From the IMG/VR virus record IMGVR_UViG_3300048578_000133, positions 1 through 27,657 of that record: 27,657 nt of DNA; one strand, written 5' to 3'. How positions within the stretch are numbered: position 1 is the stretch's first letter; every line of letters starts with the position of its first letter. Below the pieces are notes generated by a model, which saw only the letters and a program-made list of their open reading frames with translations, ran no database searches and had not been told where the DNA came from. The position numbers and the translations under genes were made by a program. The DNA is from a virus (Duplodnaviria; Caudoviricetes). Below are positions 308-27,398 of the stretch, in pieces.

Positions 308-820
308 TTATTTGTTAAATGTTGTAATTATTGTTTCTATTATTTTACTGTCTATATTTTTATTTAGCTCAGCACTATTGCCTATAAACTGGCGTTTAGG
401 TATGCGAATATCCATACGTTTCTTTTTTGTTAATGCCATCCACTTCCACTTTTCCTTGTCCGTTTCAATATACATGGCCCAAAAAAACTTTCGCATTTTT
501 GCGGTTATTGGTATACTGTACTTAGCACCATTATTATGAGCGTCTGCATGTGGCAAGTCGGTTCCAATAATTATGTTGTTTATTGTTGCAAGCCTTACCT
601 TTAAGTCATTCATTAAACTATTGGTGTTCATTAGTATTTTATGGCCTAAATCGTCCTTTCTTTTGGGCCATGCAACAAAGCTTCTATCAGTAAAACCCTG
701 CTTGCGAAAACTGCCTTTAAAATGGCTTAAAGCCTGCTGACTTACGTTATGAGGAAGCTGTTTAATAATGGCCTTTCCCATAGCCTCAAAATCGGGTGTT
801 TTGTTAATTTTTGATGGCAT
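308..820 (-). CDS. Virion morphogenesis protein (Mu gpG / phage tail S-like)
   Basis: Motifs W-PKRK, HADAHNNG and IPKRQFIG; follows MuF as in Mu. Confidence 0.85.
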   Translation of the reverse strand: MPSKINKTPDFEAMGKAIIKQLPHNVSQQALSHFKGSFRKQGFTDRSFVAWPKRKDDLGHKILMNTNSLMNDLKVRLATINNIIIGTDLPHADAHNNGAKYSIPITAKMRKFFWAMYIETDKEKWKWMALTKKKRMDIRIPKRQFIGNSAELNKNIDSKIIETIITTFNK

Positions 821-850
821 TTGTGTTTTAATTATAAAATACTACCTTTG
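820..850 (+). promoter_or_regulatory. Bacteroidota primary-sigma promoter, antisense to the head operon
   Basis: TTTG (820-823), 19-nt spacer, TACCTTTG (843-850): exact -33/-7 consensus. Confidence 0.75.
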
Positions 851-854
851 AAGT

Positions 855-920
855 CCTCGGGGAGCGGTTCGCCAATCCCCACCAATAGAAAGCCATTAGC
901 AATAATGGCTTTCCGTATTT
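855..920 (+). ncRNA. Candidate small RNA: tRNA-acceptor-like minihelix ending in ACCA, followed by a terminator-like hairpin
   Basis: GGGGA (859-863) pairs with TCCCC (876-880); inner GG-TTCG-CC; ACCA at 881-884; consensus promoter directly upstream. Confidence 0.55.
888..920 (+). terminator. Hairpin, probable intrinsic terminator
   Basis: GAAAGCCATTA-GCAA-TAATGGCTTTC: 11-bp perfect stem, GNRA loop on the plus strand, then CGTATTTT. Confidence 0.65.
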
Positions 921-2257
921 TAAAGCAATTCGTTCAGTTTGTCCAGTATGGTTTCAAAAGTGTCTGCCTTTTCAATGTTTACCATTTTGCCTTTGTATTC
1001 AAAATAACATGTCTTAACGTTTTTATAGTGCTTAATTTTAGCATTTACCTGTTTTGCAGCATCAACCAGTGAAGACTTTAAAAAAGATGCTTGGTAATTA
1101 TCCAAATCAATTACAATAAACGTTTCTGCTAAATCTCTTAACTGACCTTGCTTTTTTAGTTTATCGTTAAAAGCGTTAGTTATCGAATTTTTAACAATTT
1201 TACTTTTAGCAACAATCTTGTCTCCAATTACATCGTCAAACTTTAACTCCGGGTTTTTCTGGCCTTTTTTGTGTGGGTTTATTTCAACCTTCTTACCTAG
1301 CCAATCTGTTGCTGTTGTTGCGGTTTTTACGTTACTCACAAGGTCAGTTAAATCAGCAAACATACTTACTTTAACAACTCTTTCTTTTGGTGTTTTAATC
1401 GTATATTTTGGTGCATAATTCTTGCTGTTTTCAAGAGCTTCTCTTAAATCCTGTCTGCCTTGAACCCCACGTTTTGCAAGCTGGAAAAACGGGTGTCTTT
1501 CTTCGCTAAATATTTCTTTAGTTAATGCCACATTGTTTTTAAACTCAGGTGGTATATCAGCAGCGGTTTGTAAAGCATAACACCTACACCTGAAGCGTAA
1601 AGGTGGATAGTGTGTTTTCCAAAAATCAGAATCAATAGCGGCAATAATGTCATTAAGTTTCCTATGCTCATCGCTAACCCGGTTGTCTTCTTGTGTTTTA
1701 AATTTAAGGTTTGGAAAACGCTCTTTATTTTTAACAGCTGTTTCCCAAAATGCAGCCATTTTAGCGCTATGGTTAGCGGTGTCATACTCTGCCTGAAGAT
1801 GATTAATATTGTATTGGTTGTTAAGTTTTAACGCTTCTTTTTTAAACTCTTCAAACGGAACAATTTTACCATCCTTAACCATCTTGCTGTTTAGCTCTTC
1901 AAGCATGGTATATGTTTTTGCACCACTAAACCTATAAAGGTTTTGTTGCAATAGTATTGCATCTCGCGAAGGAAGTTTGGAGTTATTGTTCCAGCCCTTT
2001 CCAAAACCACTTTCAGCACCCTCGTTTAATGTTTCAAAGGTTTTTGTAATTGATTCTCTATTCAGGTCTGTAGGCTTTATTTTGCCTTCGTGCAGGTCTT
2101 TTGCAAGCTGCGTAATAACTTTCTCCCATCCGCTTAAATCAATGGCTAAAACAGTGTTAAAACCACCACAGCAAGGACAGTTTTCAATATTGTAATATGC
2201 CTCAACCTTTTTGTAATAAAACTTTTGCGAAGCTGATATGAGCTGCGCGTTTATTTC
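920..2257 (-). CDS. MuF (Mu gp30/gpF-like) minor head protein with C-terminal CdiA-like nuclease domain; probably the -1 frameshift extension of the portal
   Basis: MuF motifs (LQAEYDTA, D-RV--EH, FW-THYPPLRFRCRC). The frame is open upstream of the tracked TTG at 1951 into the portal 3' end (first upstream stop at 2372-2374) with no ATG/GTG/TTG. C-terminal VEINP..KNPE....GD..IVIDL. Confidence 0.85.
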   Translation of the reverse strand, partial: EINAQLISASQKFYYKKVEAYYNIENCPCCGGFNTVLAIDLSGWEKVITQLAKDLHEGKIKPTDLNRESITKTFETLNEGAESGFGKGWNNNSKLPSRDAILLQQNLYRFSGAKTYTMLEELNSKMVKDGKIVPFEEFKKEALKLNNQYNINHLQAEYDTANHSAKMAAFWETAVKNKERFPNLKFKTQEDNRVSDEHRKLNDIIAAIDSDFWKTHYPPLRFRCRCYALQTAADIPPEFKNNVALTKEIFSEERHPFFQLAKRGVQGRQDLREALENSKNYAPKYTIKTPKERVVKVSMFADLTDLVSNVKTATTATDWLGKKVEINPHKKGQKNPELKFDDVIGDKIVAKSKIVKNSITNAFNDKLKKQGQLRDLAETFIVIDLDNYQASFLKSSLVDAAKQVNAKIKHYKNVKTCYFEYKGKMVNIEKADTFETILDKLNELL

Positions 2258-2277
2258 TTTTTTCCGTCCCCACCTCC
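2227..2277 (-). promoter_or_regulatory. Putative -1 ribosomal frameshift signal (portal to MuF)
   Basis: A-AAA-AAG in the portal frame at 2263-2257; GGAGG 9 nt upstream; imperfect hairpin GCGCAGCT-CATATC-AGCTTCGC 8 nt downstream. Confidence 0.75.
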
Positions 2278-3513
2278 CGAAGGGTTGGGCGCAATAGGTG
2301 CATTTTGTTTTATTCCTAAAATTGGTATTCCGGTAACTTGGGTAATGTATTCTGGGTCTATGTCGTAAAGGCTACCAAATTTTTGAATAGTATCAATAAT
2401 TTGCAGTTGTGTAAGGCTTTCTGTGTTATCCCACTTAAAGTAATGGTTTGCTAGAGGTGCATACACTGGGCTAAGGTTTACCAATACTGGTTTTATTTGC
2501 ATATTAAACACATATTCAAATAGCGTTTTGTCCGCTTCAAACCTGTCTTTTGCAAGTGTAAACTGTATATCAGCACTTCCTACAAATGCTTTCTGATCAG
2601 TTAGCCCGGCACCACCAAGAACACGCTTGCTAAGCTCATCATTGCAAATTTGTATTAGCTTTTCATGAGGCGCAACACCAGTACCTCCAATGTTGCCAAT
2701 TTCAAACTTCTCTTGTCCTTTACCCACCATAAAGTGGTTGCGTTTAAAGTTTGATGCTGCATTAAAAAGCTCTTTTAATCGTGTATCGTCTTCACGGTCT
2801 GTGGTAACAAAAATAGGTGGTACACCAAACTTGTCTATGTAATCTAGAAATGCACCAAAGCCTAATTTTTTAGCCAATATTACTATGGCCATTTGCGAGA
2901 GCATTCCTAACTCATCATCTTTACCAATTTGCACGTATTGTTGCGCAAATGGCCCCTCTCTATAACTCCATCCTGTAGTTGCACCTGAAGTCTTGGTTAT
3001 TATTCCTTTTCTTGTGTTAAAGTGACCACGTGGAATTTCTGTAATTTGTTTGAGCTCACCTTCAGGAGTTAAATCGAAAAACTCAAGAAGCTTTGTGCCT
3101 TCAAATTGGTGTGTTATAACCATTCTGATTAAATCACGCATCCAAGGCCTTTCTAATAACCAACTTATTTCAGTGTTTTCTTTATCCTTTTCGTCAACCA
3201 TTTTAAATTTACTACGTTGGCTGTAAAGCACTCGCGTATCTATAATGGATGAAAGGTGTTGATCCAATAATAAATTACTGTATAAGCTGGCCAATGGTTG
3301 AAAGTCGGGCTCTTTAGGGTCGGTTGCTAAGGCAATGGCCGTTTTAAGGTCTTTAATTGTTTTTGCTGTTAACTCAACGGCCTCATACTCCAGCGTTTTA
3401 CTTGGGCTATCTGTACCTCTTCTAATAGCAGATTCAACTAAAATAGCTCTGTCATCAATCCTTTTAAGAACCTCTCTTTGAATGTAGTTCCAAGCTTTAT
3501 TTTTTAAACTCAT
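2251..3513 (-). CDS. Portal protein (DUF935 / Mu gp29-like)
   Basis: 420 aa; D-HLSS-I-TR, KFGVPP, C-DELSK-VLG motifs; lies between terminase/gp36 and MuF. Confidence 0.88.
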   Translation of the reverse strand: MSLKNKAWNYIQREVLKRIDDRAILVESAIRRGTDSPSKTLEYEAVELTAKTIKDLKTAIALATDPKEPDFQPLASLYSNLLLDQHLSSIIDTRVLYSQRSKFKMVDEKDKENTEISWLLERPWMRDLIRMVITHQFEGTKLLEFFDLTPEGELKQITEIPRGHFNTRKGIITKTSGATTGWSYREGPFAQQYVQIGKDDELGMLSQMAIVILAKKLGFGAFLDYIDKFGVPPIFVTTDREDDTRLKELFNAASNFKRNHFMVGKGQEKFEIGNIGGTGVAPHEKLIQICNDELSKRVLGGAGLTDQKAFVGSADIQFTLAKDRFEADKTLFEYVFNMQIKPVLVNLSPVYAPLANHYFKWDNTESLTQLQIIDTIQKFGSLYDIDPEYITQVTGIPILGIKQNAPIAPNPSGGGDGKKK

Positions 3514-22312: not shown

Positions 22313-23131
22313 ATGACAGATACAACTAAAAAAATGAAAACACCGATTTCTTATTACGGTGGCAAACAAAAACTTGCATCAACAATTGTTAAATTAATTC
22401 CTGAACACAACCTCTACTGCGAACCATTTATAGGAGGTGCTGCTGTTTTCTTTGCAAAGCCGCCTAGCAATGTTGAAGTAATTAACGACACTAATCGCGA
22501 AATGATCAACTTCTATCGGGTTGTACAAAATGATTTCGTAAGCCTCGAAAAAGAGGTTAGAATAAGCTTACACAGCCGTGATGTGCATCGTAGAGCAACT
22601 GTGATATATCACAACCCGGATATGTTTAACGAAATTAAACGAGCTTGGGCCGTTTGGGTTTTAGCTGCTCAAAGCTTTGCCAGCGGTTTGGATAAAGATT
22701 GGGGTTATGATATTAAAAAGTCCACAACATCTAAAAAAGTGGCCAATAAGCGTACTGGCTTTACCGAAGATTATGCAATTCGATTACAGGAGGTACAAAT
22801 AGAGTGTACCGATGCACTTCGTATTATTCGCAGTAGGGATAGCGTAGATTCATTTTTTTATTGTGACCCTCCTTACTACAATAGCAATTGCGGTCATTAC
22901 GATGGTTACACGATAGAAGACTTTGATGCTCTATTGAAATTACTAAGCGAGTGTAAAGGTAAATTCTTATTATCTAGCTATCCAAGCCCTATTTTAAAGC
23001 AATACAGCGCAAAATTCGGTTGGCATACCCAAACACTCGACTTTCAGGTTTCTGTAGCTAATAACCACGGCAAACCGGGTAAACCTAAAACAGAAGTACT
23101 GACGGCTAACTATCCAATTAGCATTAAGTAG
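22313..23131 (+). CDS. DNA adenine methyltransferase (Dam-like, D12 class)
   Basis: YYGGK, EPFIGG (motif I), INDTN and DPPY (motif IV); alternative start at ATG 22334. Confidence 0.93.
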   Translation: MTDTTKKMKTPISYYGGKQKLASTIVKLIPEHNLYCEPFIGGAAVFFAKPPSNVEVINDTNREMINFYRVVQNDFVSLEKEVRISLHSRDVHRRATVIYHNPDMFNEIKRAWAVWVLAAQSFASGLDKDWGYDIKKSTTSKKVANKRTGFTEDYAIRLQEVQIECTDALRIIRSRDSVDSFFYCDPPYYNSNCGHYDGYTIEDFDALLKLLSECKGKFLLSSYPSPILKQYSAKFGWHTQTLDFQVSVANNHGKPGKPKTEVLTANYPISIK

Positions 23132-23259: not shown

Positions 23260-24492
23260 TTATTCTAAATCGTATTGTTTAATTTTACGGTACAATGTAC
23301 GTTCGCTGATACCCAATTCTTGTGCCGCTTTTTTCCTTCTTCCGTTGTATTTGTTTAAAGCCTTTTTAATCAGCTCAATTTCTTTGTCTTCAATAGATAA
23401 CGACTCCGGAACCGGAATGGCTTCATTTAACTCAATAACCTGGTTGTTGGGTTGATTATGGCCCATTTGCATGGGTTGTTGGTTAACATTTGGGTGATAA
23501 AATGTTGGTGTTGGAGCAGCCATAGGGCTATTATCCGTAACCGGACTTGCGCCCATATTATCAGGAGCATTCCCATTTTGAATCATACCAAAAACAATAC
23601 TTTTTAAATCGTTCATGTCTTTACGCATATCGTAAAGTACCTTATAAAAAATATCACGTTCGCTCATGCCATGGTCCACATTGGTGCCCATCAGCATAGG
23701 TAAACTTTGGCGTTCGGCAGGCAACACACGTTGCAATTCACTTGCGTTAACAATTTTATCCTCGTCAAGTACACTTAATTGTTCGGCAATATTTTTAAGT
23801 TGACGGATGTTACCCGGCCAAGTATAGTTTACTATCATTTGCGCTGCATCCGGCTCAAGGGTTACGATTTTAGAACGGTATTTTTCCGAAAAATCAGCAG
23901 CAAATTTCCTGAACAATAAATGAATATCTTCTTTACGCTCACGCAAAGGTGGAACCTTGATAGGCACGGTGCTTAATCGGTAGTATAAATCCTCACGAAA
24001 CTTACCACGTGCGGCCAATTCCAGTAAATCTTTATTGGTAGCCGCAACAACCCTCACATCTGTTTTCTGTGTTTTTGATGAACCTACTTTAATAAACTCT
24101 CCACTCTCTAGCACACGTAACAAACGGGCTTGAGTTTCTAATGGAAGTTCACCTACTTCATCTAAAAAAATGGTACCGCCATTTACGGTTTCAAAGTAAC
24201 CTTTACGGGTATCGTGTGCTCCGGTAAACGATCCTTTTTCGTGGCCAAATAATTCAGAGTCGATGGTGCCTTCAGGAATTGCACCACAGTTTACCGCAAT
24301 AAAGTTTCCGTGTTTACGGTTGCTTAAGGCATGTATAATTTTACTAAACGCTTCTTTACCCACACCACTTTCTCCGTTAATTAAAACAGAAATATCTGTT
24401 GGTGCCACTTTAACTGCTGTTTCTAAAGCAATATTAAGCAGGGGAGAGTTGCCTATAATTTCAAATCGTTGTTTTATTTCTTGAATGTTCAT
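23260..24492 (-). CDS. Sigma-54-interacting AAA+ / Fis-family regulator without a receiver domain
   Basis: GESGVGKE Walker A, ELFGHEKGSFTGA, FLDEVGE, FREDLYYRL, WPGNIRQL, C-terminal HTH. Confidence 0.95.
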   Translation of the reverse strand: MNIQEIKQRFEIIGNSPLLNIALETAVKVAPTDISVLINGESGVGKEAFSKIIHALSNRKHGNFIAVNCGAIPEGTIDSELFGHEKGSFTGAHDTRKGYFETVNGGTIFLDEVGELPLETQARLLRVLESGEFIKVGSSKTQKTDVRVVAATNKDLLELAARGKFREDLYYRLSTVPIKVPPLRERKEDIHLLFRKFAADFSEKYRSKIVTLEPDAAQMIVNYTWPGNIRQLKNIAEQLSVLDEDKIVNASELQRVLPAERQSLPMLMGTNVDHGMSERDIFYKVLYDMRKDMNDLKSIVFGMIQNGNAPDNMGASPVTDNSPMAAPTPTFYHPNVNQQPMQMGHNQPNNQVIELNEAIPVPESLSIEDKEIELIKKALNKYNGRRKKAAQELGISERTLYRKIKQYDLE

Positions 24493-24500
24493 GGCTAAAA

Positions 24501-25880
24501 TTATTTAAAAGTATCAACCACCTTACCAAACAAGCTGGTCATGGTTGAGCGTTCTATTTTTACATTTACATAATCGCCTACTTTGTATCCTTCGCCAACC
24601 GGAAAAACCACCAACTGGTTTTGGTCGTTGCGGCCTTTAAAATCATCATTCGATTTTTTAGAATAACCATCAATTAATACCTTATAGGTTTTACCAATGT
24701 AATCTAATTTTTTATTCAAACTGATGCTGTTTTGTAATTCCACCAACTCTGCAAGTCTGCGGCCTTTTACATCAGCCGGAACATCATCAGCATATTTGCG
24801 TGCAGCCAATGTTCCCGGACGTTCGCTATAGGCATACATAAACGCAAACTCAAATTGTGCTTCTCTAAACATACTTAATGTATCTTGAAATTCTTCTTCC
24901 GATTCAGTACAAAAGCCAACAATGGCATCGGTACTGATACCTACATCAGGTAATATGCTTCTGATGGTTTTTAACCTTTCGCTAAACCAAGTTCTGTCGT
25001 AAGTACGGTTCATCAACTTTAAAATACGGCTATTGCCGCTTTGTAAAGGGTAATGAATATACTTACAAATGTTGTCGTACTTTTTCATGGTGTAAAGTAC
25101 TTCATCGGTAATGTCTTTTGGGTGAGAAGAAGAAAAACGAATACGTAAATCAGGTGATATTAAAGCCACTTTCTCTAACAATTGTGCAAAGTTACACAGT
25201 GTTTCACCGGCTTCGTTTTGCCATTTGTACGAGTCAACATTTTGGCCTAATAAAGTTACCTCTCTGTAGCCTTGGTTAAACAATTCGGTGGCTTCTCGTA
25301 TAATGCTTTCCGGCTCACGGCTGCGCTCACGACCACGTGTAAAAGGCACAACGCAGAAAGAACACATATTATCGCACCCCCGCATGATACTTACAAATGC
25401 ATTTACACCATTGCTGCTTAAACGCACCGGAGTAATTTCAGCATAAGTTTCTTCTCTGCTCAACAATACGTTAACCGCCTTTTGTCCCGCTTCCACTTGT
25501 TGTATCAATTTAGGAATATCGCGGTAGGCATCAGGTCCTACAACAATATCCACCAATTGGTCTTGTTCCAGTAATTTTGATTTTAAACGTTCGGCCATAC
25601 AACCCATTACACCCACTATCATTCCCGGGTTTTTACGTTTGTTGCCTTTCATCTCTTTTAATCGGCCCCAAATTTTGGCTTCCGCATTATCTCTAATGGC
25701 ACAGGTATTTAAAAACACCACATCCGCTTGTAATGGGTCGTCTGTTGTGGTAAATCCTTCTCCTTGCATAATACTGGCCATTACCTCACTATCCGCAAGG
25801 TTCATGGCGCAGCCGTATGTTTCTATGTATAAACGTCTTTTGGCTGTATCTATCGCTGTATCGGCTACTAATCCTCTCAT
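24501..25880 (-). CDS. miaB: tRNA-2-methylthio-N6-dimethylallyladenosine synthase
   Basis: TYGCAMN..DSE, NTCAIR, GCMAER, radical [29 protein letters not shown] domain. Confidence 0.96.
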
Positions 25881-25902
25881 TTGTATTTGAATTTTCGAGG
25901 TG

Positions 25903-25934
25903 CAAATATAAAAGAATTTCTGACAGACTGTCAG
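25903..25934 (-). promoter_or_regulatory. miaB promoter -7 element with a palindromic operator
   Basis: TATATTTG on minus (25910-25903); CTGACAG-A-CTGTCAG perfect palindrome at 25920-25934. Confidence 0.7.
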
Positions 25935-26042
25935 CTATTTTTCGGTTAAAACCATTTGTATATTAATATTCAATAACTCAATCGGTAATAATTGGTTTAA
26001 TTGTTGCCAAATGCTAAATTTCACCCAATAACCAACACCATT

Positions 26043-26678
26043 ATGAAACAATTATTGCTAACGCTCTTTGCCGTTTACAATTTATCAGCTTTCTCTCAAA
26101 CACCTTTTTCTATTGGTATCAACTCTTCTATAGACTATACAGGATTACAAGCGAGACCAAATTTTGTAGAGCCATGGATTGGTTACCAACTAGGTGTGAG
26201 GTTAAAGTACGATTTGAATCAAAACTTCTCTCTAATTACTGGTTTCAATCACCAAAATCAAGGATCAAAAGCTGATTTATCTCGGTTAAGATTTAGAGAC
26301 GCAACGGATTTAACTCCAATAAGCGTGGAGGGTTATGATAAAATTAGCCAAGTGCCTTTGTTGTTTTCTTTTTATGCCGGTAAAAAACTCAGGTATGGAT
26401 TTAATGTGGGAGCGGCATACAGTTTTTTGTACCGTGTAAATTCGCATATTACTTACCAAGACAAGAATAATTTAAATGAGGAAACAAAAAGATATACCAC
26501 TGCAGTTTCAAGTCAGTTTATTACCGGTCTGTTTTCTTTTGGTGTTGAGTATAATTTAAATCGAACTACTTTTAGGGTTGAACCAAATATGTCGTATCAT
26601 ATTTTTGATGTTACAAATAGCTTCTTTAACTACCTGAACCTTGGTTTAGGAGCTTCTGTTTATTACAGGTTGGAGTAA
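26043..26678 (+). CDS. Outer-membrane beta-barrel protein (PorT/OMP_b-brl-like)
   Basis: Signal peptide from ATG 26043 (MKQLLLTLFAVYNLSAFS-Q); alternating beta strands; C-terminal GLGASVYYRL. Confidence 0.72.
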   Translation: MKQLLLTLFAVYNLSAFSQTPFSIGINSSIDYTGLQARPNFVEPWIGYQLGVRLKYDLNQNFSLITGFNHQNQGSKADLSRLRFRDATDLTPISVEGYDKISQVPLLFSFYAGKKLRYGFNVGAAYSFLYRVNSHITYQDKNNLNEETKRYTTAVSSQFITGLFSFGVEYNLNRTTFRVEPNMSYHIFDVTNSFFNYLNLGLGASVYYRLE

Positions 26679-26705
26679 GAAAGTATCCAGTTTTTTATTT
26701 AAGTG

Positions 26706-26759
26706 TTTATTGAATAACAATAAAAAAATATTGTTATTCGTTTAATTTACATATATTTG
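26706..26759 (+). promoter_or_regulatory. Promoter and operator of the DUF2975-HTH operon
   Basis: -7 TATATTTG (26752-26759); TTTATTG-N5-CAATAAA (26706-26724); 11-bp inverted repeat 26712-26722/26729-26739. Confidence 0.65.
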
Positions 26760-26774
26760 AACTAAATAAAAAAC

Positions 26775-27398
26775 ATGGAAACAAATAATCTTAAAACCAT
26801 TAAAGTTCTTTATTGGGCTACCTTAATTGGGTTTGTAATACATATTGTTGTTGTCGGGCACACAACATTTCAAAGCTTATTTCCCTCACCTTTATTGTAT
26901 GGAGAGGTTAGGTTGATTCCAATTGATTTTATGACTCGTGTTACTAAAAACGCAACAACTTTTGGTGAAGTTAGGTTGTTTGATATGACCAACACACATG
27001 GAGCGATTGTTTTTAACAACACCTCTTTCATGAACACAAAAGCAATTGTATTAGTTGTGCTGAATGTGATAGGTCAACTTGTTTGGCTATATTTCACTTG
27101 GTTGTTATTGACTATTTTTAAGTCGTTAAAATCCGAAAATGTTTTTGTTGGTGCCAACATAAAAAGGTTGAGGTTGATTGCTTCAGTTATAGGGATATCA
27201 CCCATAATACAATTGATTAAAAATGTGTTATTTGCTGATTTAGTCGGTCAAGAAATAATTTTAACAGATAAATATGTAGCTTTCAATTACGACTATTCTA
27301 TGTTTTCTGGTGTGCTTTATATGGTATTGATTTTAATATTGGTTGAAGTGTTTAGGTATGGTATGAAATTAAAACAGGAATACGATTTAACAGTTTAA
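26775..27398 (+). CDS. DUF2975 family membrane protein
   Basis: Four hydrophobic segments; F...NIKRLR and EVFRYG..LK.E.DLTV motifs. Confidence 0.88.
   Translation: METNNLKTIKVLYWATLIGFVIHIVVVGHTTFQSLFPSPLLYGEVRLIPIDFMTRVTKNATTFGEVRLFDMTNTHGAIVFNNTSFMNTKAIVLVVLNVIGQLVWLYFTWLLLTIFKSLKSENVFVGANIKRLRLIASVIGISPIIQLIKNVLFADLVGQEIILTDKYVAFNYDYSMFSGVLYMVLILILVEVFRYGMKLKQEYDLTV

Follow-up and report, generated by a model that had tools for sequence, protein, structure and literature searches.

What takes the place of an immunity gene behind a phage toxin that appears to lack one? MuF toxins have been described together with protein immunity (Jamet 2017, PMC5576092; Apk2/IapK, PMC12226406) and, in the accessible parts of these sources, the immunity factors of polymorphic toxins are proteins. 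The locus analyzed here lies within a stretch of Caudoviricetes DNA of 27,657 nucleotides (termed here the window), the right part of which, according to gene annotation, consists of host genes with a Mu-like prophage end to their left. In this prophage the stop codon of a MuF gene (920-922, minus strand) and the ATG of a gpG-like gene (820, minus strand) are separated by an intergenic gap of 99 nt (821-919) that contains a conserved ORF on neither strand and, hence, no small immunity ORF directly downstream of MuF. The gap is occupied by a convergent promoter-hairpin-terminator unit which, as judged by sequence comparison across homologous loci, is real, conserved, toxin-specific and non-coding.

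An ORF does follow the antisense promoter, and it measures 55 aa in the window (906-1072, plus strand) and 20 aa in a second locus (L001), is absent from 4 homologues and is not conserved; as an immunity protein it was ruled out because only 20 aa of it exist in L001. The gaps of the window and L001 are identical (99/99) and their flanks are 97-98% identical, so that the changes are too few to count. Elsewhere in the window, a D12-class adenine methyltransferase is encoded at the prophage end (22313-23131), and the host genes (23260-27398) encode a sigma-54 activator, a radical SAM/TRAM protein, an outer-membrane barrel and a DUF2975 protein.

The MuF protein and its predicted tRNase tail

The genes surrounding the gap, all on the minus strand, are as follows:

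308-820, minus: gpG-like neck/tail-completion gene (weak PF05069 match, below cut-off)
920-2371, minus: MuF frame of 483 aa, counted from stop to stop, with its first Met at residue 155
920-1420, minus: C-terminal PD-(D/E)XK domain of MuF, similar to Bp1026b CdiA-CT, a predicted tRNase (profile and model)
2251-3513, minus: Mu-type portal gene
2251-2265, minus: portal end GGA AAA AAG AAA TAA with an A AAA AAG heptamer, a candidate site for a -1 frameshift into MuF

Pfam recognizes the MuF domain alone in the window's MuF protein and leaves the tail unmatched, and a PDB search with the single tail sequence returned no match. A search of 1.84 billion representatives yielded 48 tail relatives; within an alignment of 29 sequences, residues D26, N30, N56, D67 and K87 are invariant and K55, P57, E58, Q93 and L94 nearly so. 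The tail profile matches 4G6V_A, from the CdiA-CT/CdiI complex of Burkholderia pseudomallei 1026b (E 6.8e-4), with KNPE lying over KNPD, D67 over the second Asp and K87 over the Lys; in other words, E58, D67 and K87 are the counterparts of that toxin's acidic and Lys motif. The structural model of the tail (pLDDT 95.6) has 4G6V_A as its sole Foldseek match under E 0.001 (TM 0.53/0.64, 19% identity), and the residue expected as Glu before the PD-(D/E)XK core corresponds to D26/N30 in the window tail. The Pfam CdiA_C family gives no match for the window, L154, L161 or L170, and a score of 26.1 against a cut-off of 26.6 for L145; the assignment of this tail subfamily to CdiA_C otherwise exists as an Atlas lead only. 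By fold and catalytic motif the tail is predicted to be a Bp1026b-type PD-(D/E)XK tRNase with a presumptive activity, which agrees with the CdiA-like toxin proposed in the initial annotation. The Bp1026b CdiA-CT cleaves tRNA-Ala in the acceptor stem and a relative, E479, cuts the T loop (PMC9086364); because an acceptor-stem cutter and a T-loop cutter are relatives, the substrate cannot be read off from the fold. The MuF tail of Peternella (L146, 2275-2754) bears a weak likeness to the family (E 2.4e-5); it has neither the NPE/GD motif nor the RNA, and two small ORFs follow it. The phages of the MuF relatives found by the protein-side search have Flavobacterium, Winogradskyella, Bacteroides and Elizabethkingia as hosts.

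The window's MuF frame has no early start codon. The portal-MuF overlap was examined in 15 loci, of which one is fused and one could not be called; in all 13 remaining, unfused loci (the window, L001, L154, L166, L192, L195, L196, L198, L199, L159, L146, L086 and L150) the end of portal overlaps MuF in a -1 relation, and most of these portal ends are slippery-looking heptamers with A- or T-runs. In-frame portal-MuF-toxin fusions occur as well, in P0005 (880 aa) and L145 (855 aa). Taken together, the lack of an early start, the 13 overlaps and the two fusions suggest that the toxin is likely made as a frameshifted portal-MuF-toxin product; a literature search returned no paper on a programmed portal-MuF frameshift.

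A convergent hairpin unit that follows the toxin subtype

The elements of the unit within the gap, all on the plus strand, are:

820-823, plus: TTTG, a -33-type element that overlaps the gpG start codon of the opposite strand
843-850, plus: TACCTTTG, a Bacteroidota sigma-A -7 box, with a predicted start near 855
855-920, plus: predicted small RNA of ~65 nt with two hairpins (by folding; putative ends)
859-880, plus: conserved hairpin, consisting of an outer stem (859-863/876-880), a GC/AA internal loop, an inner stem (866-867/872-873) and a cap (868-871)
881-884, plus: ACCA following the stem, not conserved across the family
888-913, plus: terminator-like hairpin of 11 bp with a GCAA loop, its U tract weak in the window and stronger in homologues

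The consensus of the -7 box and its position at -12 to -5 follow PMC9723704. From 5' to 3' the hairpin reads GGGGA (859-863), GC (864-865), GG (866-867), TTCG (868-871), CC (872-873), AA (874-875) and TCCCC (876-880). The initial annotation had described a TTTG-N19-TACCTTTG promoter, a hairpin running from GGGGA to ACCA, an 11-bp hairpin with a GCAA loop and a gap of 99 nt; the promoter is present at 820-850, the other elements are in place and the hairpins fold as it described. Its remark that the RNA barely overlaps the MuF coding sequence agrees with the extent of the predicted RNA, 855-920, the MuF stop being its limit.

Folding returns exactly the two-hairpin structure, which over positions 855-921 has a z score of -4.7 (0/200 shuffles). 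Individual features of the window are within chance: the first hairpin alone (z -1.5 relative to shuffles), the promoter pattern alone (1 observed versus 0.56 expected; 44/100 shuffles), the 19-nt spacing of which is lacking in most homologues in its exact form, and a 5-bp stem with NCCA after a -7 box (0.755 per shuffled window; 103/200 shuffles). It is through the conservation of hairpin and position, rather than through single features of the window, that chance is exceeded. ARAGORN found no tRNA in the window, and Rfam 15 gave 0 matches at the gathering score, the best (E 3.4) falling on the terminator. Four metatranscriptome runs contain low-depth, scattered contigs over MuF, portal and gpG that carry neither strand information nor RNA ends. 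Among contigs of relatives, some retain the promoter block (820-857) and differ in sequence beyond 857, and others retain 854-938 behind a different upstream block, so that promoter and RNA seem, in these sequences, to exchange near the predicted start.

The key characteristic of the unit is its association with one type of tail. Five loci or locus pairs (L154, L159, L161/L192, L166 and L145) were found by protein-side searches, and each has an antisense TAnnTTTG box, the hairpin and a terminator-like hairpin within its MuF-gpG gap; because L145, L154, L159, L166 and L192 came from these searches, they were not selected by the RNA, and L145 had no part in defining the motif. From the protein-found loci a DNA pattern with a free 3' tail was built and used in a scan blind to proteins, which returned 25 loci, of which 11 lie directly behind this toxin subfamily (E<1e-35), 6 of them new, and 14 are not beside this toxin. 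A covariance model, which family members match by construction or near-identity at 28-39 bits, scores 8 of these 14, among the matches listed, at 14-22 bits and misses L145. (An earlier, promoter-bearing pattern gave 84 loci, mostly chance matches, of which 10 were MuF-linked; genome and metagenome scans with an overlong pattern spacer gave 5 loci, L159 alone being relevant.)

Within 9 aligned rows, 4 of which had been found with a pattern fixing the inner core, 4 of the 7 pairs show compensatory changes (9 cells), and pairing amounts to 90.5% versus 16-57% in slid controls. What does not vary is a GC that faces an AA, with a G-C pair following: this GC/AA loop is retained in L159 alongside two compensatory swaps and in L145 within a wholly different stem. 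A descriptor of this form (stem-GC-G..C-AA-stem) matches the antisense strand of the gap in 10/10 loci with an NPE-type tail and in 0/20 other MuF loci, these 30 representatives having been chosen by the author from 75 loci; it never matches the sense strand, and its shuffle rate is 0-1.7%. The 10 loci amount to some 8 lineages, viral contigs being the source of nearly all of them, and the MuF core, tail and gpG of the homologues are 25-53% identical to those of the window, with the motif still present. The proposed pairing of RNA unit and toxin is thereby borne out. One copy is present in 9/10 loci, and L166 carries two.

As to which strand is transcribed, the promoter and terminator bracket the hairpin on the plus strand, the caps are UUCG or GNRA-like, and two G-U pairs of the L145 hairpin fail on the minus strand; these features favour a plus-strand RNA. 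The mRNA-strand version of the window's hairpin folds about equally well and contains a U-G wobble.

The slot behind MuF genes was also surveyed more broadly. Of 82 loci given, 75 with a callable MuF and flank were kept, falling into 22 tail clusters (7 were dropped for want of a MuF call or owing to a short flank). An antisense -7 box occurs 40-175 nt from the stop in 62/62 long-tailed MuF loci without a following ORF, spanning 15/15 tail clusters, where 38 of the 62 loci form a single cluster and some were reached via promoter-bearing patterns. It occurs in 0/8 short MuFs and in 1/3 MuFs with same-strand small ORFs, in which case it lies inside the ORF and has a weak fold. Tails in this set include CdiA_C-like ones (L023, L010, L052, L145 and L151, all below cut-off) and LPD3 ones (L095 and L140); the L106 tail has no useful domain match. 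The LPD3 domain is presumed here to be an RNase.

Pairs of closely related loci show how tail and RNA travel together. L086 and L087 have MuF cores that are 95% identical, and one possesses both a tail and an RNA whereas the other possesses neither; L086 and L095 have cores that are 90% identical, and both their tails and their RNAs differ. Judged from such comparisons, the RNA sequence follows the tail type, like toxin-immunity cassettes. In the hankyphage (p00, L150), a papain-type MuF tail faces a convergent ORF of 83 aa (2860-3135, minus strand) that lies behind a TAnnTTTG box and matches no Pfam family; it is a candidate for protein immunity.

Several other arrangements were observed in this slot. 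LPD3-type MuF tails (L095-L143; 38 loci, one cluster) have in the MuF-gpG gap a long-hairpin RNA of their own with a recurring CCTAAG or CATAAG. CdiA_C-like MuF tails in L006, L010, L052, L056 and L069 are accompanied, near 1500-1650, by a longer RNA, a second type bearing CCA, in which there is a short GGGC-N3-4-GCCC-RCCA hairpin. L159 contains a second hairpin and terminator cassette (1820-1957, minus strand) that resembles the L023 RNA, and L166 contains two GC/AA hairpins (1866-1946, minus strand); by analogy, these extra cassettes are like stacked immunity genes.

What the RNA may do

The explanation preferred here, with slightly better than even confidence, is that the unit specifies an RNA antitoxin of ~65 nt that is expressed in the lysogen and binds the predicted tRNase through the GC/AA internal loop. 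It builds upon what can be read directly: the layout, the conservation and covariation of the motif, its strict association with a single toxin subtype and the toxin fold. On this account, a housekeeping-type sigma-A promoter would produce the RNA in the lysogen from ~855, independently of the late operon, and the hairpin near 920 would end it short of the MuF coding sequence. Production of the toxin would come late, probably by frameshifting into a portal-MuF-toxin protein, which would then be packaged and carried into new hosts. The RNA would presumably occupy the toxin active site as a distorted-helix decoy; were it so bound, producers and fellow lysogens would be immune, and naive cells would lose tRNA. 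Behind other MuF nuclease tails, the slot would contain a different RNA specific to each, as in toxin-immunity cassettes.

An improbable alternative, though the best placed of the four considered, is cis-antisense or convergent-transcription control, in which leaky expression of MuF and gpG in the lysogen is reduced by collision or by base pairing to the mRNA downstream of the MuF stop. That the RNA is antisense to the operon mRNA just upstream of the gpG start was noted in the initial annotation: complementarity to the operon mRNA is indeed full, and the promoter overlaps the gpG start, but because the RNA would start near 855, the gpG start and the 30 nt before it are left uncovered. Antisense RNAs are frequent in flavobacteria (PMC9723704), which is consistent with such control; yet an invariant mismatch loop is not required for it, and the loop here is constant and changes with the type of toxin. 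The RNA would terminate before the MuF coding sequence, it misses both start regions, and short MuFs lack the box.

Somewhat less probable again is that the RNA, trimmed to the CCA at 884, inhibits the toxin as a tRNA-Ala acceptor minihelix, which is how the initial annotation had read the unit. This idea draws upon the acceptor-stem cleavage of tRNA-Ala by the Bp1026b CdiA-CT (PMC9086364) and upon a CCA within 10 nt of the stem in 5/11 motif copies. An exact stem-N-CCA occurs, however, in only 2/11 (the window and L159), and the CCA is absent from 6/11; where present, it is spaced by 1-4 nt, and its A is often part of the terminator A tract. Conservation of the stem plus NCCA among homologues had been proposed beforehand as a test; within the family, both the G-rich stem and the UUCG are replaced: in L145 and in the first L166 copy a GUUC/GAAY outer stem replaces the G-rich one, and UUCG caps only 3/11 copies, the others having GAGA, (U)GCAA(A), ACAA-containing or longer caps, as expected of a structural cap. 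As to the echo of the T loop, GCGGTTCG is common to the window copy and the T arm of E. coli tRNA-Ala (alaV), and sharing of this kind is borderline (p 0.02-0.03, uncorrected, in 3/9 rows; none in 6/9), the comparison having been made with E. coli rather than Bacteroidota tRNA-Ala. The stem plus NCCA is at chance level, there are 2 inner pairs only, and the G3-U70 pair is absent, as had been noted; a 7-bp acceptor with T arm, G3-U70 and a conserved N-CCA do not characterize this RNA. The CCA is not the family's determinant, and it may matter in the G-rich subgroup.

It is unlikely, and a little more so, that the RNA is an activating, guiding or chaperoning partner of the tail, as within a packaged ribonucleoprotein, rather than an inhibitor. 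Toxin-specific co-exchange would suit any binding partner, and inactive MuF tails are predicted to bind RNA (PMC5512222), whereas the filling of the same slot by a protein ORF for a non-nuclease tail, the stacked extra cassettes and a lysogen-type promoter are better suited to immunity and protection. Least probable is an mRNA-strand element, such as an autoregulatory cut site formed by a U-G wobble hairpin and terminator behind the MuF stop with an incidental promoter, since, despite similar folding energies on both strands and an invariant U-G pair in the minus-strand form, the antisense box is kept in 62/62 loci and the cap loops and L145 G-U pairs favour the plus strand.

Extending the preferred antitoxin reading, one may suppose, at somewhat less than an even chance, that Bacteroidota Mu-like phages possess a polymorphic toxin system with RNA immunity, in which RNase tails (PD-(D/E)XK or LPD3-type) are made as portal-MuF fusions, each with a convergent decoy RNA, and in which spare cassettes are stacked like orphan immunity genes. 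If true, this would constitute a new class--RNA immunity for delivered toxins--and a source of natural small-RNA inhibitors of tRNases; it would connect work on delivered toxins with work on RNA antitoxins, which are separate fields, and would explain MuF nuclease genes without an immunity ORF. A domain of 165 aa and an RNA of 65 nt make the role of MuF tails in gut and environmental Bacteroidota phages testable, and swappable toxin-RNA pairs provide a ready specificity matrix.

Relation to known systems

Type I systems are defined by an antisense RNA that covers the toxin's translation start or coding region; the predicted RNA (855-920) reaches no further than the MuF stop. In type III systems, such as ToxIN and AbiQ, an RNA antitoxin binds the nuclease directly, and a repeat array lies upstream of, and is co-transcribed with, the toxin; here the RNA is convergent and downstream, with one copy in 9/10 loci. 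In the prophage-borne AbiF/RCd22 system, an RNA has been proposed to neutralize a nuclease by direct binding (10.1101/2025.04.15.648962). The window system would by analogy resemble type III systems and AbiF/RCd22 in having an RNA that neutralizes a nuclease by binding; it differs from them in its toxin fold, its fusion to a virion protein and its RNA, which is on the opposite strand, downstream, and usually a single hairpin without a repeat array or pseudoknot.

Compared with a tRNA acceptor minihelix (E. coli alaV), the window copy is alike in its GGGG start, its ACCA after the stem and GCGGTTCG, and unlike in being composed of 5 pairs, a 2x2 mismatch loop and 2 pairs rather than 7+5 and in having no G3-U70; the shared features are not conserved. 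A full-text search, covering literature outside subscription journals, found no publication that describes an RNA next to MuF toxins; the phage RNA catalogue in PMC10690425 may list the motif as an uncharacterised one.

RNase domains fused to MuF or portal have been described (Iyer 2017, PMC5512222; bioRxiv 10.64898/2026.08.28.747851). The window protein is like the MuF-PBECR and portal fusions (PMC5512222), which have RNase-like tails fused to MuF or portal and are thought to be injected, no RNA partner being named in the available sections. With the CdiA-CT/CdiI of B. pseudomallei 1026b (4G6V; PMC9086364) it shares the fold and the aligned acidic and Lys motif, and it differs as a phage head protein with predicted head delivery, without a CdiI and below the Pfam CdiA_C threshold. 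It is likewise a MuF polymorphic toxin in its makeup, having a MuF domain with a C-terminal toxin domain adjoining portal, and it has in common with those described (PMC5576092, PMC12226406), among which cd13442-type tails are listed in the accessible text, a temperate phage and a MuF domain with a variable toxin tail behind the portal gene; where it departs from them is in having no same-strand immunity ORF, its slot being filled by a convergent non-coding unit.
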